The notes beneath the pieces were generated by a model that saw nothing but the letters and a program-made list of their open reading frames with translations, made no database searches and had not been told where the DNA came from. Made by a program: the position numbers and the translations under genes. Shown piece by piece: positions 2,761 through 58,254 of a DNA stretch of 64,000 nucleotides (position 1 is its first letter; each line of letters opens with the position of its first letter). The DNA comes from an archaeon (lineage in GTDB: Archaea > Micrarchaeota > Micrarchaeia > Anstonellales > Bilamarchaeaceae), in assembly GCA_020053355.1 (NCBI GenBank), contig JAGVNI010000007.1, positions 70,838 through 134,837 on the forward strand, in the 5' to 3' direction.

Positions 2761-4650
2761 TTATATGTCGAGGTTCTTGACCGTGGCGCCATGCTCCTCG
2801 ATGAATGCGCGCCTCGGCTCGACCAGATCGCCCATCAGGAGCGTGAACAGCTCGTCTGCCACGAGCGCATCCTCCACCGTGACCCGCTTCAGCGTCCGCG
2901 TCTCCGGGTTCATAGTGGTCTCCCAGAGCTGGTCGGCGTTCATCTCACCAAGGCCTTTGTAGCGCTGGACGTTGGCATCCCCGCCGACGGCCTTAAGCGC
3001 GTCGGCCAGCTGCGCGTCCGTGTACATGTACTGCACGCTCTTGCCTTTCTGCACCCGGAAAAGCGGGGGCTGGGCGATGTAGAGGTATCCCTTGTCTATC
3101 AGCGCCCTGAAATAACGGTAGAACAGGGTGAGGATAAGCGTCCGGATATGCGAGCCGTCCACATCGGCATCGGTCATGATGATGACCTTGTGGTATCGCA
3201 GCTTGCCCATGTTGAAGTCCTCCTTGAACCCGGCCCCAAGGGACAGGACGATGTTCCGGATTGCCTCGCTGTCGATGATTTTGTGGATTGGGGCTTTTTC
3301 CACGTTCAGGATTTTGCCCCGAAGGGGCAGTATGGCCTGGTAGCGGCGGTCCCTTGCCTGCTTGGAGCTGCCGCCTGCCGAATCGCCCTCCACGAAATAT
3401 ATCTCGCATTTCGCCGGGTCTTCTTCCGAGCAGTCCGCCAGCTTGCCCGGGAGCACGCTGCTTTCGAAGACGTTCTTCCTGCGAATCAGGTCCTTCGCCT
3501 TCTGCGCGGCTTCCCTCGCTTCCATGGAGTTGATGATTTTCAAAGAAATGATTTTCGCGATAGGCGGGTGCTCCTCGCAGTATGTCTTGAAGGCGTCATA
3601 GAACAGGCTGTCCACCGCGCCGCGGATTTCACTGTTGCCGAGTTTCGTCTTGGTCTGGCCTTCGAACTGCGGCTCGGGCACCTTCACGCTGATAATCGCT
3701 GTCAGGCCTTCTATGGCGTCATCCCCGGTAATCTTGTGCTCCTCCTTGACAAGCTTGGCCGATTTCGTATAATCGTTCACGGCCCGTGTAAGCGCGGTCC
3801 GGAATCCGACCACATGCGTCCCGCCCTCAATCGTCTTGATGTCGTTCACGAAGCTGTAGATGCTGTCGCTGTAGCCGTCGGTGTACTGGAGGGCGATTTC
3901 GACTTCCACATGGTCGGTCTTCTTGTTCAGGTAATACGGCTCGTGGAGCTTGTTTCGCGCTTCGTTGATGTGCTTGACGAACTCGACGATTCCGCCTTCG
4001 TAGCAGAACTCCTCCTTCTTCCCGACCCGCTCGTCCGAGAGGGAGATTCTCAGGCCCTTGTTGAGGAAGGCGAGCTCCATGATGCGCTCGCGGAGGTAAT
4101 CGTAATCGAATTCAATCGAGGGGAATATCTGCGAATCGGGCTTGAACGAGACAATGGTCCCCCGCACGGCCGAGTGCGCGCCCACCTTGAATGGCTCCCT
4201 CGGCTTTCCCCTGGCATATCCGATGGTGTGGCACTTGCCGTCCCGGTGAACCTCGATGTCCATCCACTCGGAGAGGCCGTTGACGACGCCCATGCCTACC
4301 CCGTGCAGGCCCCCTGAGACCTTGTATGCCTTCTTGTCGAACTTTCCTCCTGCATGGAGGGCGCTGGCAACCAGCTCCAGGCCGGATTTGCCTGAAGGGT
4401 GCATATCCACCGGGATGCCCCTTCCGTCGTCCTTGATGAGCGCGGAGCCGTCTTTCCGGAGCTCCACCTGTATGTTCTTGCAGTGGCCTGCAAGGGCTTC
4501 GTCTATGCTGTTGTCCACGATTTCGTAGACCAGATGATGAAGACCCCTTTTGGACGTGTCGCCTATGTACATGCCAGGCCTTTTCCGGACCCCGTCCAGG
4601 CCTGTCAGGACCTGTATTTCCTTCGCTGTGTAACCGCTATCCTCAGCCAT
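2761..4650 (-). CDS. gyrB: DNA gyrase subunit B
   Basis: The 629-aa product has a GHKL ATPase N-terminus ([19 protein letters not shown]) and Toprim motifs (EGDSAGGS). It ends 2 nt before the gyrA start. Confidence 0.95.
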
Positions 4651-4754
4651 ACAATTACCACTAGTTCCTTGATGTGAATTTACGTCGTAGAGAATTCAGT
4701 ATTCTTGCCAAAAATATATTGTCTGGGAGGCTTTAAATTGGTATGGTTTTTTAC

Positions 4755-4808
4755 GGCATTGCACACAAAATAATGCCTGCACATAAACTCTTTTGGCTGC
4801 ACATTAAT
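4755..4808. promoter_or_regulatory. Operator-like repeats in the gyrB/island intergenic region
   Basis: An inverted repeat GGCATT-N11-AATGCC lies at 4755-4777. It is followed by a direct repeat of G(C/G)CTGCACAT(A/T)AA at 4776-4788 and 4796-4808. Confidence 0.3.
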
Positions 4809-4865
4809 TAGGCCTTTTTTGACGATAAAGATTTCATTTTATGACCGTTCCCACCTCTCAAAGGC

Positions 4866-4873
4866 TATAAATA
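4866..4873 (+). promoter_or_regulatory. TATA box for a leaderless transcript of the 4896 gene
   Basis: TATAAATA lies 23-30 nt upstream of the ATG at 4896. This is typical archaeal promoter geometry. Confidence 0.45.
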
Positions 4874-4895
4874 TACCTTTTCAAAATATAATTAT

Positions 4896-5603
4896 ATGAC
4901 GGAACAGCTAGCGCAAGTCGATTCCCCCAAATATTGGCGAATTTTTATAACTGCCGCTTCGGAATTTGACATACAAGGCGTTAATCTTCGAGAGGGGATC
5001 TGCAAGCACCTCAAATTACCGGGTCAAGTTTCGAATATCAAAGACGGAGTTGAACTAATTATATACGGAAACAAGATACAAGCAGAAGAAGCGAAAAAAA
5101 GAGTTTATGGCATTTGCAGGGCAATTCATGGTAGTGAAGATGTCGCCGGACTTGATATAACTCTCTCCGAGCGTCTATTTGACTTCGATATTTCCTCAGT
5201 AAAAGTAAATATTCTTCGTTCTGATGACCTACGGGAAATGGTTTGGGGCTTACAAGGGGCGGGAAGGGTCTTTCAGAAACAATTAGAACAAAAAAAGAAT
5301 CAGTGCTTTATTTCAATTACTTCGATTATAGGCTATGCTGTCGATGATGGAAGCAGTATTGCTCTCCTACAAAATCACCAAATCATGCTTCGAGAGATTC
5401 TTCAAGAGACCCCGTTTGATGAAGAGTTGACTAATTGGTTATTCACTTTCTTAGAAAAAATGATTGATAGTGATCGCCCTGGGTTATTAGGACTTATCGG
5501 GGCTCTTGAAAAAGAGACCGACCAATCAATTGAATCGAAGAGTAAGGATTACCAAGAACTTTACAGAAAAATCAAATTGAGGAAGGTAAAAAAGGGAAAT
5601 TAA
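4896..5603 (+). CDS. Hypothetical protein (235 aa), candidate toxin partner of the downstream Panacea-domain gene
   Basis: A complete ORF in the AT-rich island, 58 nt upstream of the DUF4065-like gene. I recognise no family from the sequence. Confidence 0.5.
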   Translation: MTEQLAQVDSPKYWRIFITAASEFDIQGVNLREGICKHLKLPGQVSNIKDGVELIIYGNKIQAEEAKKRVYGICRAIHGSEDVAGLDITLSERLFDFDISSVKVNILRSDDLREMVWGLQGAGRVFQKQLEQKKNQCFISITSIIGYAVDDGSSIALLQNHQIMLREILQETPFDEELTNWLFTFLEKMIDSDRPGLLGLIGALEKETDQSIESKSKDYQELYRKIKLRKVKKGN

Positions 5604-5660
5604 CGCAGGGAAATACACCACCGTAACGTATATTAACTCCTTTCGCCCCATAAAACTAGT

Positions 5661-6092
5661 ATGCGAACCGAGTTGGTGCAGCTCATTGGCGACTATTATT
5701 TTTCAATGTTTGGTGAGCCAGTTAGTGTAGAATCTTTTCAAAAAAGGCTACAATTTCAAAAATTTGTCTACACATTGGCGCACTTCAACATCATCCCAGA
5801 AGCAAAACCCTTATTCAATTGGTATATCCGAGGCCCTTATTCAAGCACAATTATGGATATTGCGTATGAACTTAGGAGTTCGGATATGTCCTTTGAGTCT
5901 AAACCACTTCCATCTGAACTATCCTTTTTTAATGAAATTAAAAATGATTCTCGAAAAATAGAATTATACGCCTCGCTTTTGTTCCTGAAGGATGCAAGGT
6001 ATTCTAAATCCGAGGCCAAAAAGCTGATTTTAATAAGAAAACCAGATTATTCACTCGAAGAAATTGAAGAAATGATTTCTCATATTCGTTGA
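5661..6092 (+). CDS. Panacea (DUF4065)-like antitoxin-type protein
   Basis: The segment FQKRLQFQKFVYTLAHFNI...KPLFNWYIRGPYSS resembles the KLQKLLYYAQ...PLF..W.YGPV core of DUF4065/SocA-like proteins. Confidence 0.5.
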   Translation: MRTELVQLIGDYYFSMFGEPVSVESFQKRLQFQKFVYTLAHFNIIPEAKPLFNWYIRGPYSSTIMDIAYELRSSDMSFESKPLPSELSFFNEIKNDSRKIELYASLLFLKDARYSKSEAKKLILIRKPDYSLEEIEEMISHIR

Positions 6093-6127: not shown

Positions 6128-7243
6128 TCATAACTGAGCGGTTGTACTCGGTTTTTTCGTTATTCCGAACAACCCGCCGTCAGATGACAACAAAAAAAGA
6201 CCTTTTTCATTTTCTATCGTCTTCATTTTCACATTAGTTTTCTTATTTTTCAATGCCCCATAGTTTTCATGAACTAGTTTAGATAACACATCCTTGTCTA
6301 TCCCAAAAATGAACTCTGAGTTAGGCATTATGTTGTCAATATCCAGCATATTACTTAGTTTAGAATGCTTTCCACTGCCCACTAATCTTTTTACGAACTG
6401 ATATGTGTTTTCTCCAATAGTGATTCGGTCCATTCCTTCATTGCTAGGTCCCTCTACCCGTAACTCTCTTTTTTCTAATATCCCTGGCAATAACTCTTTC
6501 TTTTTTGGGTAAAGATCGATTAGCTTAGCTTTATACTCTGAATATAACTGATTCCCAATTCTTTCAAAACCAGCATATTTGCATAATCTGGTATAATGTT
6601 TCAATACCTGCAACTCATACCTAGATGATTCACTTTGATCACTTCCTGGGGGGTCAGCAACAACCAGACTTGATCCTAAATCAGCATTGCTGATTAAGGT
6701 TGAAATAACAAATCGAGCTGTAGTTACCGCTGGAAGTAATCTCGCATTCTTTTGTTCTACCCCGGAAGTTATCTGAGTTCTTTGGGTCTTATGATTAAAC
6801 GTTCCTTTGCATTCAAACACCATTTCCCTTCCTTCAGACGTAACTCTATAATCTGGCCTCCTTGAAGACCCCTCAACCTCGCTTATCTCTTCCCAGTTTA
6901 AGTCAAATGTTTTCTGCATAAATAATATCCCAATTCCAACTCCCACTGCTTCGGCTACCCTACGCCTATGTTCAGAACCCATTCGCCTACAGAAGAACCC
7001 CGGTTTATCCAAAAGAAAGCTTCCTAACAGAAATCTGCCGTTATAAAAGTACTCCTCCATGCTGGGTCTGCTTACTGGATAAAGATAACGCCCCGCGGTA
7101 GAAATAAGTTCGAGATAAGTAAAACGAAATTTGTTTTGATGATTGCGAAGACGATGATCAATCGGATCTGAAAATCGTTCTAATGTTAGATCTACCCCCC
7201 TTTCTTTCTTCAATAGCGCTTCAGTTTCGAAATCAAGTTCCAT
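6128..7243 (-). CDS. PD-(D/E)xK nuclease-fold protein (371 aa), candidate defence/restriction effector
   Basis: The motif RRPDYRVTSEGREMVFECKG reads as D...E.E.K. It is preceded by a hydrophobic beta strand (AVGVGIGILFM) and followed by a 220-aa C-terminal domain of unknown function. Confidence 0.55.
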   Translation of the reverse strand: MELDFETEALLKKERGVDLTLERFSDPIDHRLRNHQNKFRFTYLELISTAGRYLYPVSRPSMEEYFYNGRFLLGSFLLDKPGFFCRRMGSEHRRRVAEAVGVGIGILFMQKTFDLNWEEISEVEGSSRRPDYRVTSEGREMVFECKGTFNHKTQRTQITSGVEQKNARLLPAVTTARFVISTLISNADLGSSLVVADPPGSDQSESSRYELQVLKHYTRLCKYAGFERIGNQLYSEYKAKLIDLYPKKKELLPGILEKRELRVEGPSNEGMDRITIGENTYQFVKRLVGSGKHSKLSNMLDIDNIMPNSEFIFGIDKDVLSKLVHENYGALKNKKTNVKMKTIENEKGLFLLSSDGGLFGITKKPSTTAQL

Positions 7244-7312
7244 ATTCTTTCCTCGGTGTCGGTATATTCCAACTTAATTTTATAAATCAGTACCGACGTT
7301 AAGCCTAAAAAC

Positions 7313-7333
7313 TAGTACGTACTAAGTACGTAC
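7313..7333. promoter_or_regulatory. Palindromic operator (TAGTACGTACTA plus a second AGTACGTAC copy) abutting a start codon
   Basis: A perfect 12-bp palindrome at 7313-7324 and a repeat of AGTACGTAC at 7325-7333, directly before the ATG at 7334. Confidence 0.4.
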
Positions 7334-7492
7334 ATGGGAAAAGGGCGAATACAGGTAGAATACGACGATGTAGATAGTCGTGAAGTAAAAGGAATGACGA
7401 AACGTCGTTGCGGCTACGTCTACTTATCGCCAGCATGGATAGACCGAAAGGTGCTGGTTCTATTGTTGCCTGAAAAGGAGATGAAAAAATGA
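7334..7492 (+). CDS. Small protein (52 aa), possible AbrB/MazE-like antitoxin or regulator. Not in the ORF track.
   Basis: MGKGRIQVEYDDVDSREVKGMTKRRCGYVYLSPAWIDRKVLVLLLPEKEMKK. Its TGA stop overlaps the ATG of the next ORF (ATGA at 7489-7492). The operator palindrome lies just upstream. Confidence 0.35.
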   Translation: MGKGRIQVEYDDVDSREVKGMTKRRCGYVYLSPAWIDRKVLVLLLPEKEMKK

Positions 7493-7779
7493 CGAGATCT
7501 ACTACTGAAGAATGGGATCAGAAAAATAGCATATTACTCAAACGCATGCAGATATACGAAATAGAATATCGCGAACGAAATTGTCTCAAGAAGACTGATA
7601 ACCACTTGAAAACAGGATGCCACGAAGTAGGTGGAGTAATCTATTGTCCAGCACTAAAAAAGTCTAAAGCAAGAAAATTCAAAAAAGAGATTGAGCAGCA
7701 GATTGCGCTCGCTTCAACGCTGAGCTCAAATACTTACTCGAATACTACTAGACGAGAAAACCCTCTACCGCTTGATTGA
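7489..7779 (+). CDS. Hypothetical 96-aa protein, coupled to the small upstream gene. Possible toxin.
   Basis: ATGA translational coupling with the 52-aa ORF. It contains C-x11-CH-x7-C. Its 3' end overlaps the convergent 7748..8836 gene by 32 nt. Confidence 0.3.
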   Translation: MTRSTTEEWDQKNSILLKRMQIYEIEYRERNCLKKTDNHLKTGCHEVGGVIYCPALKKSKARKFKKEIEQQIALASTLSSNTYSNTTRRENPLPLD

Positions 7780-8836
7780 GGAGCTCATGCTGCGGACAAT
7801 ATTTACCGACGAAGGTCCCTCGTCTAAGACTTACTGCGCTTTGCTGGAGGGCAAAACGACTTGCCACGGTTTCATAGCTGTATACTGGTTGGTGGAGTTC
7901 ATGCTCGGAACAAAGCTCGTAGATCTGGCCCATCTTCCGTATGTCGATGAAAGGACTGAATCCACTCTCTGAAACAAACTCGTCAGAGGGGTAGCGATTG
8001 GTCTGTTCTTTCCTTGAAAGAAGACCGAGACTAGCCTCATCGAATAGCCGGAGCTTAGTATAGTCCATGTCTCCCCCAGGATTTTGGTATTTTCTTATCG
8101 ATGTACTCTTGATGCCGAAGAAAGATAGCAGGCTCGGATAAGATGCTGGGATCCCTTTCCTTCTATACAGTCGTTCTACACCGCTCATATGCACCCATAG
8201 GGATTTTTTTGAGAATTCACGTAGAAAGACGAACTTCTCGTAGTTTCCAGTAAGGGAACGGTGTCTGATGTCGAGGCTCACGATGCCTGCGGCAAGGGCA
8301 GCTTCGATTTTATTCTCGAATGCCTCATCGTTATCACTTGCCATATCAATCAATACTCTTGGGAGTTTATCCTTTGACCGAATGGCGTCGATACAGTTCC
8401 CGATGTCTACCTCTAGCGATTCCACCGAACTCTCTGGTGATCGCTCGGGTATTGTCACGATGTCCAGTTCGCTCATCAACTGGCCACGGACATAGTTTCC
8501 AACAAACGTGTCGTCAAGGTCTCTCCATTTCGTTCCTGCACCAGGTTGTGCGCGTTGTAGAGTATGAGAAGCAACGCGAGAAGATTGGCCAGCAAGGCGC
8601 AAGTTTAATTCTTGGGAAAACGAGTCGTCGCTTCCCTTGACATTGAGTCCGAGCCGATTGAGATCATCGTCGATTATCTCGAATAGTTCATGAGGATATT
8701 CATAAGAGGTCTTTCCGAAACAGTGACTAAGACCTTTCTTGTAGCCATACTCGGTTGGCGTCAGTGCCCGCGTAGGCAACAGAACATGATTCGTTGGGGT
8801 TTCGAGAACCCATCCACCATCAATCAACTTCGTCAT
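7748..8836 (-). CDS. Hypothetical 362-aa protein, possibly a TGT/DpdA-like TIM-barrel. Weak.
   Basis: The start is taken at MTKLIDGG, whose ATG overlaps the stop of the upstream 75-aa gene (ATGA). GGWVLETPTNHVLLPTRALTP loosely resembles the hG.veTP.FMPVGT motif of tRNA-guanine transglycosylase-family enzymes. There is a C/H cluster near the C-terminus. Confidence 0.5.
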   Translation of the reverse strand: MTKLIDGGWVLETPTNHVLLPTRALTPTEYGYKKGLSHCFGKTSYEYPHELFEIIDDDLNRLGLNVKGSDDSFSQELNLRLAGQSSRVASHTLQRAQPGAGTKWRDLDDTFVGNYVRGQLMSELDIVTIPERSPESSVESLEVDIGNCIDAIRSKDKLPRVLIDMASDNDEAFENKIEAALAAGIVSLDIRHRSLTGNYEKFVFLREFSKKSLWVHMSGVERLYRRKGIPASYPSLLSFFGIKSTSIRKYQNPGGDMDYTKLRLFDEASLGLLSRKEQTNRYPSDEFVSESGFSPFIDIRKMGQIYELCSEHELHQPVYSYETVASRFALQQSAVSLRRGTFVGKYCPQHELLNQAVEGFLV

Positions 8837-16177: not shown

Positions 16178-18003
16178 TGGAAGGCCAGGCAATATTGGAT
16201 TTCGAGTGGATACTGCTGTTTGCCGCAATCGCCGGCATAGTCGCAGTCCGCCTCAGGATGCCACCCGTAGCAGGCCTGCTGCTTGCGGGGATGGTGATGG
16301 GCCCGAACATGCTCAACCTCGTCGACCTGCCCACGATAGACATGCTTGCAGAGCTCGGCGCGGTCCTCCTCCTATTCATGATAGGCGTCGAATTCTCAAT
16401 CACCAAGCTGCTTTCATCAGGCCTTCGCGCAATAATAAGCAGCGCCATCCTCGTCTTCCTCACGTTCACGGTGATGCACGAAGTGGCAATACTCCTCGGC
16501 TACGACTATGTGACCTCCCTTTTCATAGCCGCCATGCTCTCGCTGAGCAGTACGGCAATCATGATGAAGATTCTCGAGCAGAAGCGCCTGATAGACCGCC
16601 ATGAGACCCCCGTGCTCATCACCATGCTTATAATAGAGGACCTGATCGCCGTCTTCATGCTCACGTTCTTCTCCAGCATGAAATCCGGCACCTTCAGTTC
16701 CGAAGACCTAATCGGCGCAGTCCTAGTCTCCCTCGCGGTCATGGTGTTCGCCTATCTGGTGCTCCTTCGCTTCCTGAAAAAGTTCTCAACCCTGTTCTTG
16801 CGCTACCAGGCCGAGGATACGCTCATCCTCTTCGCGTTCGCCCTTGGCGTCGGCATGAGCGTGCTCGCCTCGGTCGTCGGGCTCACCCCCTCAATCGGCG
16901 CGTTCCTAGCAGGAAGCCTGATAGCCGGCCTGCCGATTGGCCGCGATGTCGAGCATGCGATTAGGCCTTTCAGCCATGTCTTCTCGTCATTCTTCTTCCT
17001 CTCGGTCGGGATGCTCATCAACCCGGCCGTCATGATAGTGTCCGCCGACCTAACAGCAATCCTGATAGCCGCATTCATGGTGACGGTGTTCCTTGCGACC
17101 GCATTCACATTCTTCTTAATCAGCTCCAGCGGGCGTTCGTCCGTCTTTGCCGGCCTGGCGATGCTGCCCCTGGGCGAGTTCTCCCTCCTTATCGCCAAGG
17201 AAGGCGTGGGCGTCGCATCCGCCGACCTGGTCGGTATAGCATCAATCGGCGTGCTGATCACTTCCCTGGCATGTTCCATCTCCTTGAACCGCAGCGAGCG
17301 CATGTACGCATGGCTCAAAGACAAACTGCCCGTCTGGTTCCTGGACAGCCTGAGGGACGCTTCCGGGTATTTCAGGAACGTCTTGTGCGCTTTCGAGCCG
17401 GGCGGGTACTTCCACCGTATTTTTATCGCCGAGCTGAAAAAGAGCTACTCCGACATCTTCTACATCGTGGGCGCGCTCATCTTCTATTATGCGGCGAAAC
17501 CGTACCTGCAATTCGAGATGGCCCTGTTCGGCTACAGCATCATGGCCTACTCGGCTCTTCTGATGCTGATGGCCGCCCTTTTCCTTGTTTCACTCACCCG
17601 CCTGTTGCTTTCAGCCAAGCGCATGTTCGACGCCCTCGCCACAATTTTCTCGAGGTCCACACCCCAGGCCAGCCGGGCGTCGATTGTCCGGAACATCCTG
17701 ATCGCCGGCACCCTTTTCATGCTGTTCGCCAACTCCTACCTGTTCATCGACATCCTGAAACTGCCCAAGGAATTCAACTGGGCGTCATTGCTCTTCGGCG
17801 TCCTGTCCGTCTTCTTCCTCTGGAGCGCCATCCGCGCATCATCGTTGTGGCTGTTCCTGCGCGAGCACAGGCCGCTCGACATCCTCAAAAGCCAGATTGT
17901 GGCCTCGAAAGACGATTTCATCATAGTAGGTGGTGACGGCGGCCCCAAGGAAAAGAAGAAGACGAAGACAGGCGGCAGGAAGAAGGTCATCTTCCTCAGA
18001 TAA
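16178..18003 (+). CDS. Monovalent cation:proton antiporter (CPA2/Na+/H+ exchanger family)
   Basis: The likely start is MEGQAILDFEWILLFAAIAG. The protein is polytopic (12 or more TM helices) with characteristic GxxxG-rich helices. The listed ORF starts upstream at 16045 with a non-membrane extension. Confidence 0.75.
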
Positions 18004-55451: not shown

Positions 55452-55817
55452 AACCAGCCTCCTTTCCCTAGGCTTTTAATCCTTCTAATGCATAATTACT
55501 CCAGAGTGAGGGGCAGGCAGCCTACGTTTTTTCTTCTGAAAAAATGAGGAAGTTCCGCCCTCCGCGAGAGATACTGCCCTTTAAGGGGGCGGACACGGAA
55601 CAGAAACGATACCCAAAGTCCGCAAGGGCAAGGGATGCAACGCATCCTGAACTGCGCAAGCAGTTCGGGAGCTTTGGAACGAAGTTCCATTGATCGTGTC
55701 TTATCTCGATGACGGAGCAAGGCGCTTTGCGCCGCTCTCCTTAATCCGAAAGGATTTTGGGGCCTTTTGGCCGCGTAAGCGGACAAATTGCAGTCAAATG
55801 CTGCCGAAATACAGAAG

Positions 55818-55850
55818 GCGGACTATGCCCCTCACTTGAACTTTTTCTCC
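55818..55850 (+). repeat. 33-nt direct repeat, copy 1 (GCGGACTATGCCCCTCACTTGAACTTTTTCTCC)
   Basis: It repeats at 55968-56000 with 2 differences. It is part of a diverged tandem duplication of about 150-190 nt. Confidence 0.6.
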
Positions 55851-55967
55851 TTATCAACCCCTGTCAAAACTTCACTAAACATCCTGTCCGGTTTGACTCC
55901 GGCCTTTGTGAAACCTCAGGTGGGGGTCTGAAAGGGGACGCGCAAGTCAAACCGGAGAGCCCCTTTC

Positions 55968-56000
55968 GCGGACTATGCCCCTCACTTGAACTTTTCCTCC
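55968..56000 (+). repeat. 33-nt direct repeat, copy 2
   Basis: See copy 1. There are further shared blocks: AAAACTTCACTAAAC at 55866/56026, and CTGTCCG(G/A)TTTGACTCCGG at 55884/56072. Confidence 0.6.
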
Positions 56001-56093
56001 GGTCTGACACCGGATAAAACTTCACTAAACTTCAGCCGGTCTGACTCCGTACAGACGATTTTATCAATCGCCTGTCCGATTTGACTCCGGCTT

Positions 56094-56384
56094 TTGTGCA
56101 ATCTGGTGGCTCTCATGAAATCGATAACGGATTTGAAGGACTCGGACATCATCGAGATAAACGGCGAGAAATACCGGGTCCTTGCAAGCGGACCACCCAA
56201 TTCCCTATGGTACCATGAGGGCCGGAAGGATGTGGAATATGGGGTCGATTTGGTGAAGCTCGGGTCTGATGCGATAACCCCTACGCATCAACTGGGGTAT
56301 TTCTCAAAAAAGCCGGACGAATTCCGGGTTTATCGGCTAGGGAAAGAAGCGGTCCCTGAAAGCGTCGAGGCCGTCAAGTTTTGA
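56094..56384 (+). CDS. Small hypothetical protein (96 aa; the start may be MKSITDL at 56116)
   Basis: Complete ORF downstream of the repeat region. Confidence 0.4.
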   Translation: MCNLVALMKSITDLKDSDIIEINGEKYRVLASGPPNSLWYHEGRKDVEYGVDLVKLGSDAITPTHQLGYFSKKPDEFRVYRLGKEAVPESVEAVKF

Positions 56385-56400
56385 TCGTGCATCATGACGA

Positions 56401-58254
56401 ATGACGATGCGGGCCCCAAAACATATTAATAACCCCGCGACGTATTCCGATTTGATGTTCGAGATTCTTTTTTTGATAGGGCTTATAGCGCTGATCGGCT
56501 TCGCGGCCAGATGGGTTTTCGAGCGGACACGGGTGCCGGAAATCCTCATCCTCCTCGCCATCGGGTTCGCGCTCGGCCCGATGGGGCCGTTCTCCAGCTT
56601 CTCCGCATTCGACATCAACCTGCAGAGCTTCCGCGGCATAGCGCCCATAATAGGCGCGGTCGCAATAGTATCATTCGTTTTCGAAGCCGGCTTGCAGCTC
56701 AAGGTGGGGCGCATCCTCAAAAGCCTGTCCTTCTCCACAATGTTCGCGATTACCAGCCTCGTGCTCTGCATAGGCGTCCTCGCTGCCCTGCTGCATTTCG
56801 GATTCGGCTGGAACATCACCGCATCCCTCCTTCTCGCGACGATATTCGGGGGTCCCTCTTCCTTCGCAATCTATTCGATGCTCCCCCTCGTCCGCACGAG
56901 CAACCATTCGAGGGGCATCCTGTACCTGGAGGGCACGCTGTCGGCAATCCTGATAAGCGTCATAGCAATCACAATCCTGCGATACCCCGGCGTCGAGGCC
57001 GGGACGATGCCTCTCCTGCAGCTGGTCATCTCGTCGTTTTCAATCTCGTTCATACTGGGGCTCGCCGCCGGCCTTGCAATCCTCTGGCTGCTCTTCAGGT
57101 TCAGGATAAGGAAATTCGGCTACCTCCTCACTTTCTCCGCCCTGCTCATGCTGTTCTTCCTGGATTTCGAGCTGCTTGGGGGAATCGGGGTGATATCCAT
57201 CGCGCTAATCGGGCTGGTCATCGGGAACTCGGGCGACGTGTTCAAGTTGCTGGGCATCACCGGGCGTTTCGAGATGGACGAAGCGGCCAAGGGATTCCGT
57301 GACGAGATAAGCCTTTTCATCACCACGTTCTTCTTCGTCTACCTCGGCATGATGGCGAGGCCTGAGTTGCTGGCCGACCCCAGCTACATTCTCCTCGCGG
57401 TGACGATGATAGTCGCAATCCTTTTCTGCCGGTGCATCATACTGCTCATCGCGAACATGCTGAAGATATCCCAGCACAACGAAGACCTCCTGCTGGCGGT
57501 CATGATTCCCCGCGACATCCTGAGCGCGACCCTCGCCACATTCGTGCTGCTTTACCCCGGGCCCGCGAGCTTCAACATCGAAGTCGTGATAATCCCAATC
57601 GTCCTATCGTCCCTGGTCAGCGTGGCTGGGGCAGGGTATTACGAACGCCTGTTCCAGCATTCGTTCCTCTTCAAGCGCGAGCTGGATTTGAGCGACGGGC
57701 GAAAAATCGTCCTGCGCACAATCACGAGGGACGATTTCCCGAAGCTCCGGCAGTTCCTCAACGACCTGGTGAAAGAAAGCGCCCTGATAGCCTTCGACCG
57801 CTACGTCAACCCGATAGAGGAAAGCGAAATGGGCCGGGAGAGCCTGGACAAAATCAACCGCGGCGACATGTTGATGTGGGTCGGCGATTTCAATGGGCGC
57901 ATCATCGCGCGGGCGGTCGCGCAGAGGATGGAGAAGCGCGAGCGGGACAACGTTTGCCTGAGCCTTTATGTGGCCAGGGACTTCCGGGGGGTGCATCTCG
58001 GCACGACCCTGCTGCGCATGCTGATTGAGGAATCCCAGCGGGTCTTCAAGCCGCACAGCATCTACCTCTCCGTCTATTCGAACAACGAGGCCGCGGTGCA
58101 CCTGTACGAGAAGGAGAGCTTCCGCAAGGTCGGCGTGCTTCCGGAATGGGGCAAGTACGAAGACACATACCTGGACGAAATTTACATGGTATACGACCCG
58201 AAAGGGGCGCCGGCCGGGGGGCCGAAGCGGAAAAAGAAAAAGGGCGCTTCATGA
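56401..58254 (+). CDS. Na+/H+ exchanger-family antiporter fused to a C-terminal GNAT acetyltransferase domain
   Basis: A polytopic domain of about 420 aa, then an uninterrupted reading frame into a GNAT fold (VAQRMEKRERDNVCLSLYVARDFRGVHLGTTLLRMLIEE...AAVHLYEKESFRKVG). Confidence 0.75.
   Translation: MTMRAPKHINNPATYSDLMFEILFLIGLIALIGFAARWVFERTRVPEILILLAIGFALGPMGPFSSFSAFDINLQSFRGIAPIIGAVAIVSFVFEAGLQLKVGRILKSLSFSTMFAITSLVLCIGVLAALLHFGFGWNITASLLLATIFGGPSSFAIYSMLPLVRTSNHSRGILYLEGTLSAILISVIAITILRYPGVEAGTMPLLQLVISSFSISFILGLAAGLAILWLLFRFRIRKFGYLLTFSALLMLFFLDFELLGGIGVISIALIGLVIGNSGDVFKLLGITGRFEMDEAAKGFRDEISLFITTFFFVYLGMMARPELLADPSYILLAVTMIVAILFCRCIILLIANMLKISQHNEDLLLAVMIPRDILSATLATFVLLYPGPASFNIEVVIIPIVLSSLVSVAGAGYYERLFQHSFLFKRELDLSDGRKIVLRTITRDDFPKLRQFLNDLVKESALIAFDRYVNPIEESEMGRESLDKINRGDMLMWVGDFNGRIIARAVAQRMEKRERDNVCLSLYVARDFRGVHLGTTLLRMLIEESQRVFKPHSIYLSVYSNNEAAVHLYEKESFRKVGVLPEWGKYEDTYLDEIYMVYDPKGAPAGGPKRKKKKGAS

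Follow-up and report, generated by a model that had tools for sequence, protein, structure and literature searches.

A conserved archaeal protein joining a carrier-type membrane domain, in which the NhaP ion-coordinating aspartates are replaced, to a GNAT acetyltransferase domain

We analyzed an open reading frame (ORF) of an archaeon of the Micrarchaeota (Bilamarchaeaceae; assembly GCA_020053355.1) that joins, in a single frame, an N-terminal membrane domain with the fold of cation:proton antiporters (CPA) to a C-terminal GNAT acetyltransferase domain. The ORF lies on the forward strand of a stretch of 64,000 nucleotides of contig JAGVNI010000007.1 (positions 70,838 to 134,837), hereafter the window, in which all coordinates of the fusion gene and its surroundings are counted (Table 1). 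This is one genuine gene, conserved in Micrarchaeota and Diapherotrites/Iainarchaeota, and the fusion is old and restricted to these lineages. The membrane domain retains the build of an elevator-type carrier, with its two unwound crossover helices, the pair of Glu159 and Arg326, and Arg353, and every member has other residues in place of the two aspartates that coordinate the ion in NhaP antiporters. We infer that the fusion does not act as a canonical Na+/H+ exchanger whose tail is regulatory. The explanation that we tentatively favor, and that we regard as possible rather than probable, is a membrane-resident, acetyl-CoA-dependent acetyltransferase in which a repurposed carrier domain would bind or conduct a non-canonical ligand and cooperate with the enzyme.

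Reading frame, distribution and integrity of the fusion gene

The initial annotation described a single uninterrupted frame of 617 amino acids at positions 56401 to 58254, and this frame is present in the window sequence exactly as described. Its start at 56401 is not the favored one. All homologues begin with the residues MFEILF (25/25 in alignment A1), which are encoded from position 56455, and the database protein P0001, which is 100% identical to the window protein, is annotated with 599 amino acids. In addition, a TATA-like box is found inside the first 18 codons of the longer frame; this box is kept in the close relatives L001 to L004, and the DNA further upstream is not. Because the homologues all start with MFEILF and the conserved box falls within the first 18 codons, the real coding sequence (CDS) most likely starts 18 codons 3' of 56401 and encodes 599 amino acids followed by the stop codon. 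Residues are numbered from this start throughout, except where the 617-residue ORF is named. The distance of the box from the ATG would imply that the mRNA of the fusion gene is leaderless.

In the 617-residue ORF, the Pfam model Na_H_Exchanger (PF00999) matched amino acids 31 to 406 with 66 bits (gathering score 26.2), and GNAT models matched amino acids 436 to 597, with Acetyltransf_1 scoring 43.6 bits (cutoff 20.7) and Acetyltransf_4, _7 and _10 also scoring above their cutoffs. A KTN/RCK, CBS or cyclic-nucleotide-binding (CNBD) regulatory tail is absent, as GNAT models are all that Pfam matches C-terminally. NCBIfam gave sub-threshold matches only, to K+/H+ antiporter models in the N-terminal part and to ArsN1, RimI and PseH in the C-terminal part.

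Among 5.8 billion clustered proteins, the same two-domain architecture was retrieved in 26 distinct full-length proteins of 587 to 612 amino acids and 46% to 100% identity, the named sources of which are Candidatus Micrarchaeota or Norongarragalinales. Beyond these 26 fusions, similarity falls abruptly to antiporter-only proteins of at most 33% identity. We also scanned one representative genome for each of 185,579 species and found 18 loci, all of them in Micrarchaeota, Iainarchaeum or unclassified archaeal metagenome-assembled genomes (MAGs), of which 16 contain a single intact ORF of 590 to 627 amino acids. Finally, among the best 150 of 2,376 matches obtained with HMMER in 1.84 billion cluster representatives, the full-length fusion was found only in P0022 and P0038 (a member from a Diapherotrites MAG with 40% identity), together with fragments; given this scope, unrelated CPA clades may contain CPA-GNAT fusions of independent origin. 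The initial annotation had read the ORF as an in-frame polytopic CPA-type domain followed by a GNAT domain and had called a GNAT tail rare, and both statements hold in these searches, which recovered the same fusion in other genomes. A literature search found no paper on a CPA-GNAT fusion, and database records label the protein either "GNAT family N-acetyltransferase" or "K+/H+ antiporter / cell volume regulation protein A". Caution in annotation is advisable, as neither the acetyltransferase nor the K+/H+ antiporter label is adequate.

Two of the 18 loci are damaged, which could speak for two adjacent genes joined by a frameshift or by an assembly or sequencing artefact. In the Iainarchaeum orthologue (L018, positions approximately 840 to 870), a frameshift falls within transmembrane helices (TM) 12/13, where frame 1 ends in "...PRDLLSAVLFILFQ" at a stop codon and the sequence resumes in frame 3, owing to an indel of the assembly or because the gene has become a pseudogene. 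In the second (L016, a long-read MAG contig, approximately 4100 to 5850 versus 6760 to 8580), an inverted copy of the downstream DNA that encodes a membrane protein and SRP54 stands in place of the 5' half of the gene, most likely as a fold-back assembly chimera. A natural split at the domain border was found in none of the 18 loci, and L018 was rejected as such a split because its frameshift sits inside TM12/13, away from the border. Moreover, 16 independent assemblies, produced by different studies, contain the continuous ORF, and 26 distinct proteins with identities down to 46% share both the architecture and a conserved linker (pattern YYER..FLF..E..L.DGR; mean pairwise identity 59%). Coding-type purifying selection acts in one frame across both halves, with ratios of nonsynonymous to synonymous substitution rates (dN/dS) of 0.04 to 0.17 for the membrane domain and 0.04 to 0.11 for the GNAT domain, which is the more conserved half of the fusion. 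An artefactual origin is effectively excluded by this conservation across independent assemblies, and we give it practically no credence.

Table 1. Features of the fusion gene and of other elements discussed, with positions in the window (AF2, AlphaFold2; pLDDT, predicted local distance difference test).
Feature	Positions	Strand	Basis
CDS of the CPA1-fold and GNAT fusion protein (most likely extent)	56455-58254	+	Homologue starts, P0001 annotation
TATA-like promoter box ATATTAATAA, approximately 27 nucleotides 5' of the 56455 ATG	56423-56432	+	Read from sequence
Membrane domain, amino acids 1-400, 13 TM, NhaP-type CPA1 fold	56455-57654	+	Pfam, profile, AF2, Foldseek
TM5 unwound GGPS, amino acids 132-135, Ser135 at the position of the ion-binding Asp	56848-56859	+	AF2 break 131/136, alignments, motif census
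TM6 EGTLSA, amino acids 159-164, Glu159 kept, ND motif absent	56929-56946	+	Alignments, motif census
Arg326 in TM11, invariant, partner of the conserved Glu	57430-57432	+	Alignments
TM12 unwound MIPRD, amino acids 350-354, Arg353 then Asp354	57502-57516	+	AF2 break 349/355, alignments
Linker, amino acids 401-416, QHSFLFKRELDLSDGR, basic, conserved, from TM13 to the first GNAT strand	57655-57702	+	Alignment A1
GNAT domain, amino acids 417-582, cytoplasmic	57703-58200	+	Pfam PF00583, PF13420, PF13508, PF13673; AF2; Foldseek
Motif A, acetyl-CoA pyrophosphate loop RGVHLG, amino acids 511-516	57985-58002	+	Alignment
Disordered Lys/Arg-rich tail KGAPAGGPKRKKKKGAS	58201-58251	+	AF2 pLDDT <50
Second CPA-family gene, 652 amino acids	16045-18003	+	Pfam Na_H_Exchanger, 149.7 bits
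Archaeal RNase P RNA	55506-55835	+	Rfam RF00373, 68.2 bits (gathering score 84), E 1.7e-18, full model length

Fold and ion-binding site of the membrane domain

A profile made from the membrane domains of the fusions and their nearest standalone relatives matched PaNhaP and MjNhaP1 at E of approximately 4e-39. AF2 modeling on the family alignment (pLDDT 77, predicted TM-score 0.72) predicted 13 TM helices, of which TM5 and TM12 are broken at GGPS and MIPRD, respectively. The Foldseek top matches were MjNhaP1 (4czb) and PaNhaP (4cz8), with a TM-score of 0.74 on the target, and the best solved-structure matches outside archaea were SOS1 and SLC9C1. Lys and Arg residues in the loops number 18.8 inside versus 2.8 outside, an asymmetry that places the N-terminus outside and the C-terminus, with the GNAT domain, in the cytoplasm. 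In common with NhaP-type CPA1 antiporters, the fusion thus has the 13-TM fold with unwound TM5 and TM12, a pair of the Glu154/Arg337 type, an Arg of the Arg362 type and the N-out/C-in topology.

The ligands of the transported ion are different. PaNhaP coordinates its substrate ion through Glu73, Asp159, Asp130 via water, Ser155 and the carbonyl of Thr129. Glu154 and Arg337 of this protein form an ion pair, and the D130S or D159S substitution abolishes transport (PMC4381880), while Asp161 of MjNhaP1, the equivalent of Asp159, alternately carries the proton and Na+ (PMC4381896). We mapped PaNhaP residues onto the window protein by family profile alignment, with which the alignments to plant SOS1 agree: Thr129, Asp130, Glu154, Ser155, Asn158, Asp159, Arg337 and Arg362 correspond to Pro134, Ser135, Glu159, Gly160, Ser163, Ala164, Arg326 and Arg353, respectively. 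Hence, whereas NhaP antiporters keep Asp130, Asp159, Ser155, Asn158 and Asp93, the fusion has Ser, Ala/Thr, Gly and Ser at the first four of these positions, and the counterpart of Asp93 is also replaced in the fusion family. The TM5 Asp of the TD motif (Asp130 in PaNhaP, Asp132 in MjNhaP1) is gone in fusion members, in which Ser135 is invariant.

To quantify these differences we used a motif census, in which the 150 best representatives were aligned and 30 fusion sequences were compared with 140 standalone relatives. The ND motif of TM6 is gone in the fusions, with Ser163 followed by Ala, Thr or Ser164 in 30/30 sequences and Gly160 in 83%, and position 164 is Asp in 94% of the standalone relatives and in 0/30 fusions. 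Glu159 and Arg326 are invariant in fusion members, and Arg353 is found in most of them (Ser in P0017, P0018 and P0020). Unlike NhaP antiporters, most fusions have an Asp after the TM12 Arg and all carry the C-terminal enzyme domain. This Asp354 is present in 83% of the fusions, while the standalone relatives have Gly in 96%, and it is missing (Gly or Asn) in P0016, P0021, P0027, P0038 and P0039. Because the members without Asp354 include the Diapherotrites protein P0038, the TM6 Asp was probably lost in the ancestor of the fusion and Asp354 gained later. A relocated carboxylate, by which Asp164 would have moved to Asp354, was also considered and is weakened by the deepest-branching members, which lack both.

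The nearest relatives of the membrane domain are an uncharacterized standalone CPA clade (P0045 to P0185, e.g., MBN2251807.1 from Altiarchaeota) of proteins of approximately 400 to 420 amino acids, without a GNAT domain and approximately 30% to 34% identical over the membrane domain. They share the Gly-Gly-x-Ser-Ser crossover with the fusion (GG(T/S)SS in the standalone clade), the TM5 Asp being already lost, and differ from it by the LES..TD sequence in TM6 (Ser160 in 89%, Asp164 in 94%), by Gly354 (96%), and by Trp209 and Phe287. The loss of ion ligands therefore appears to be largely specific to the fusion. In the core helices of the window protein, the only charged residues 4 or more positions away from a helix end are Glu159, Arg326, Arg353 and Asp354, to which Glu77, close to where TM3 ends, can be added. 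These buried charges form two compensating pairs (Glu159/Arg326 and Arg353/Asp354), unlike a negatively charged cation site. Nearly invariant residues specific to the fusion are Ser163, Thr359, Asp237, Tyr140, Pro144, Asn150, Arg19, Trp20, Gln340 and Tyr396, of which Arg19, Trp20, Pro144, Asn150, Gln340 and Tyr396 are on the cytoplasmic face; the fusion-specific polar residues at the crossover are Ser163, Thr359 and Asp354. Because dN/dS is low and near-invariant, fusion-specific residues sit at the crossover, the site appears to have been remodeled under selection and not merely to have decayed. The label "Na+/H+ antiporter" that the membrane half initially received is doubtful, because both NhaP ion-coordinating aspartates are gone in all members and changing either one to Ser abolishes transport in PaNhaP.

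Known CPA antiporters with C-terminal tails carry KTN/RCK domains (KefC, NhaP2) or cyclic-nucleotide-binding domains (SOS1, SLC9C1). These proteins and the fusion share a layout in which the CPA membrane domain precedes a cytoplasmic globular domain, and since C-terminal regulatory domains are common in CPA antiporters (TrkA_N is present in the homologue P0037), the fusion could be a cation/proton antiporter with a non-canonical site formed by Glu77, Glu159 and Asp354, and with the GNAT domain as an acetyl-CoA/CoA sensor or an auto-acetylating regulatory switch. The conserved carrier architecture, Glu-Arg pair and Arg353 are in line with this, although the fusion carries both of the types of change that, as single D130S or D159S substitutions, kill PaNhaP transport. 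The Asp gained in the unwound TM12 lies next to the old site, yet the deepest-branching P0038, P0039, P0016 and P0021 have neither Asp164 nor Asp354; the nearest standalone clade, for its part, is widespread despite the loss of its TM5 Asp, so sites with one carboxylate may work. GNAT-fold proteins can sense acetyl-CoA, as PanM does (PMC3398536), but the tail of the fusion seems to be a catalytic-type GNAT and not a ligand-sensing regulatory fold, and its fully conserved catalytic-type residues and stronger constraint fit an enzyme better than a pure sensor. Furthermore, a separate, canonical-looking CPA2 gene is present in the window, which suggests that cation/proton exchange in this organism does not depend on the fusion. 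Altogether, we consider a regulated antiporter distinctly unlikely. The earlier proposal that the GNAT domain couples acetyl-CoA status to ion transport is thus possible and, with both ion-binding aspartates replaced, not the best-supported one.

The acetyltransferase domain and candidate functions of the fusion

Modeled alone with AF2 from 39 sequences, the GNAT domain reached a pLDDT of 94. Foldseek matched it, with TM-scores of 0.78 to 0.88, to 4j3g/4jwp (acetyl-CoA bound), 2ge3, ArsN1, YncA and several phosphinothricin acetyltransferases (PATs), and, in the same range, to PA4866, BAR, the tabtoxin-resistance protein (Ttr) and SpeG. The acetyl-CoA loop, which the initial annotation had named as a feature to be looked for, is present: Arg511 and Gly516 are invariant and 16/26 members have RGxGLG, the canonical form of the Q/R-x-x-G-x-G/A loop. 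In the subclade of the window protein the loop reads RG(V/A/F)HLG, with His replacing Gly at position 514, and dN/dS is still 0.06 to 0.11. Asn544, Ala547 and Tyr551, which make up motif B (N..A...Y), are invariant in the fusions and in 38 standalone relatives, and Tyr551 is located where many GNATs have the catalytic Tyr. The family also has signature blocks of its own (RERDNV, LPGW and YLDxIYM). From these residues, the GNAT domain is apparently acetyl-CoA-dependent and enzymatically active.

The disordered tail that follows the GNAT domain is basic in nearly all members, and its sequence is not conserved (mean identity 20%). Both CPA-family proteins of the window end in similar Gly-Pro-Lys-rich tails, GGPKRKKKKGAS and GGPKEKKKTKTGGRKKVIFLR (58201-58251 and 17940-18000). 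A Lys-rich tail as a genome-wide trait was rejected because only 4 of approximately 50 large ORFs in the window have basic C-termini.

With an enzyme of this type on the cytoplasmic side, we propose that the membrane domain would bind or conduct a non-canonical ligand at the remodeled crossover (Ser135, Ser163, Thr359, Arg353 and Asp354). The carrier might pass a small amine-bearing solute (an amino acid, an analogue or a polyamine) to the GNAT domain docked at the cytoplasmic face, and the docked domain would then N-acetylate the carried solute. We prefer this version with direct N-acetylation of the carried solute, which by itself is nevertheless somewhat unlikely; alternatively, binding of a ligand in the membrane domain could gate the enzyme. 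A transport-coupled ("vectorial") N-acetylation, in which a site for an amine solute replaces the cation site and passage and acetylation are one coupled step, is more doubtful still. Among the findings that support the general proposal of a carrier domain working with an acetyltransferase are these: the nearest folds of the GNAT domain are small-molecule N-acetyltransferases acting on amino-acid analogues, and the topology puts the domain in the cytoplasm, where acetyl-CoA is available.

Other findings weigh against this proposal. The remodeled site is not uniform, as Asp354 is missing in the deepest-branching members, and cation binding via Glu77, Glu159 and Asp354 may be compatible with the sequence. 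The putative docking of the GNAT domain on the cytoplasmic funnel is suggested only by conserved surface residues. No acceptor substrate was identified for the GNAT domain, and its closest solved relatives by sequence profile, 2ge3 (5e-29), 2i79 (8e-28) and PA1377, are uncharacterized. Although PAT/BAR, YncA/MddA, ArsN1, PA4866 and Ttr share the fold, the acetyl-CoA loop and the conserved Tyr with the domain, it fails the test for membership of the PAT/ArsN1 families in NCBIfam (42.9 bits versus 170 for ArsN1a and 33.4 versus 210 for ArsN1b). It differs from PAT/ArsN1-type GNATs also by its own signature blocks and by Cys or Ser (NV[C/S]LSLYV) at the beta4 position aligned with the conserved Glu of 4j3g, which we take to be the catalytic Glu of PAT enzymes (E-x-S-V-Y-V context). 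An assignment to the PAT/ArsN1/YncA family was rejected on the basis of the scores below the curated cutoffs and of the Glu missing at this position. Around the fusion gene, no neighboring gene family recurs at divergent loci, so context gives no hint of a pathway.

The genomic contexts of standalone GNAT relatives also speak against a solute-acetylating partnership older than the fusion. These relatives are proteins of approximately 175 to 185 amino acids with 30% to 37% identity, found in Micrarchaeota, other archaea, Armatimonadetes and bacteria of the candidate phyla radiation (CPR), and none was found fused to another membrane domain. In a Rosetta-stone test, none of 8 contexts of standalone GNATs (0/8) had an adjacent CPA or other transporter gene, which argues against such a partnership predating the fusion. 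The standalone genes in these contexts sit instead among translation and transcription genes. A class-II synthetase gene of the aspartyl-tRNA synthetase (AspRS) type is found upstream in 3/8, immediately in 2 (one of them overlapping) and 3.7 kb away in the third, and in one context the gene of elongation factor 1alpha (EF-1alpha) precedes that of the AspRS type. A synthetase gene of the glutamyl-tRNA synthetase (GluRS) type precedes one standalone GNAT gene (L026), and the others are found among genes of ribosomal proteins, NAC, RpoL and the exosome.

Such neighbors, together with the automatic annotation of the standalone GNATs as RimI/RimJ-like, would suit a housekeeping acetyltransferase of protein N-termini or lysines that is held at the membrane by a CPA fold serving as an inert dimeric anchor, analogous to Golgi-anchored NAA60. 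The dismantled ion site of the membrane domain is in line with an anchor, RNA or anionic lipids could be bound by the disordered basic tail, and the archaeal and eukaryotic N-terminal acetyltransferases SSO0209, NAA50 and NAA60 match the GNAT domain significantly, though more weakly. However, a mere anchor is not expected to hold a dN/dS of 0.04 to 0.17 over 400 residues, nor to keep the crossover residues Gly133, Ser135, Glu159, Ser163, Arg326, Arg353 and Thr359. The best fold matches of the GNAT domain are small-molecule enzymes and not protein N-terminal acetyltransferases, and neighbors devoted to information processing are the default in reduced archaeal genomes, which makes the context weak. 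We judge an anchored protein acetyltransferase unlikely. NAA60, a weak but significant match to the fusion GNAT, is a membrane-anchored N-terminal acetyltransferase whose anchor consists of amphipathic helices and not of a transporter fold; MprF is a flippase fused to a GNAT-fold synthase, which uses aminoacyl-tRNA, is devoid of the acetyl-CoA loop and differs in its membrane domain. Both are precedents for GNAT-fold enzymes at the membrane, with no homology of the membrane parts implied.

What is new in this protein is the combination of a naturally Asp-less yet conserved CPA1 domain with a GNAT domain, both kinds of component being known already. If the fusion does not exchange cations, it would be a conserved natural case of the NhaP/NHE carrier fold recruited to another job. 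It carries Asp-to-Ser type substitutions that have been used experimentally to kill transport, and it thus offers a contrast for what this fold needs. Micrarchaeota and Diapherotrites have tiny genomes, depend on hosts and have a membrane biology that is almost unknown, and few of their multi-domain membrane proteins are, like the fusion, both lineage-specific and universally intact. The uptake, detoxification or modification of scavenged compounds or proteins could involve an acetyltransferase bound to the membrane. Vectorial N-acetylation, if true, would be a group-translocation-like system new to the CPA superfamily and to GNATs, and specific to host-dependent DPANN archaea; the interest of the fusion would rise much in that case.

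At the loci of other archaea where a synthetase gene accompanies a standalone GNAT gene (L020, 2595-4543; L021/L022, 1379-5060; L025, 1-4989; L026, 2258-4498), the synthetase gene directly upstream is of the AspRS type in L020 and in L021, the latter with a gene overlap of 4 nucleotides, and of the GluRS type in L026. In 2 standalone cases the GNAT gene overlaps the nucleotidyltransferase gene (CTP_transf_like) that follows it.

Neighboring genes and other features of the window

The neighbors of the fusion gene in the window are the archaeal RNase P RNA, a small ORF, a gene for a small membrane protein, and the genes of SRP54 and NurA. Synteny of these and other genes (SRP54, thermosome, NurA and others) is common only to relatives with at least 80% identity, and conserved operon partners were rejected for this reason.

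The second CPA-family gene of the window encodes a protein with a CPA2-like pattern (SLSSTA ... IIEDL) in which the Asp is kept, and its Pfam match is much stronger than that of the fusion. It has a long extra hydrophobic region C-terminal to the CPA core, and approximately 16 hydrophobic segments in total.

The interval from the RNase P RNA to the fusion gene contains an ORF of 96 amino acids (56094-56384, forward strand), for which Pfam gave no match and which lacks conservation in those related loci that were examined. In the same interval, a direct repeat of approximately 33 nucleotides, "cggactatgcccctcacttgaactttt(t/c)ctcc", was seen by eye at approximately 55819-55851, where it overlaps the 3' end of the RNase P RNA, and again approximately 150 nucleotides downstream, at approximately 55969-56001. 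Shorter repeated motifs ("aaacttcactaaac" and "tttgactccgg") were also seen, including at 55868-55905, 56017-56050 and 56063-56095. The 3'/terminator region of the RNase P RNA looks as if it had been partially duplicated in tandem.

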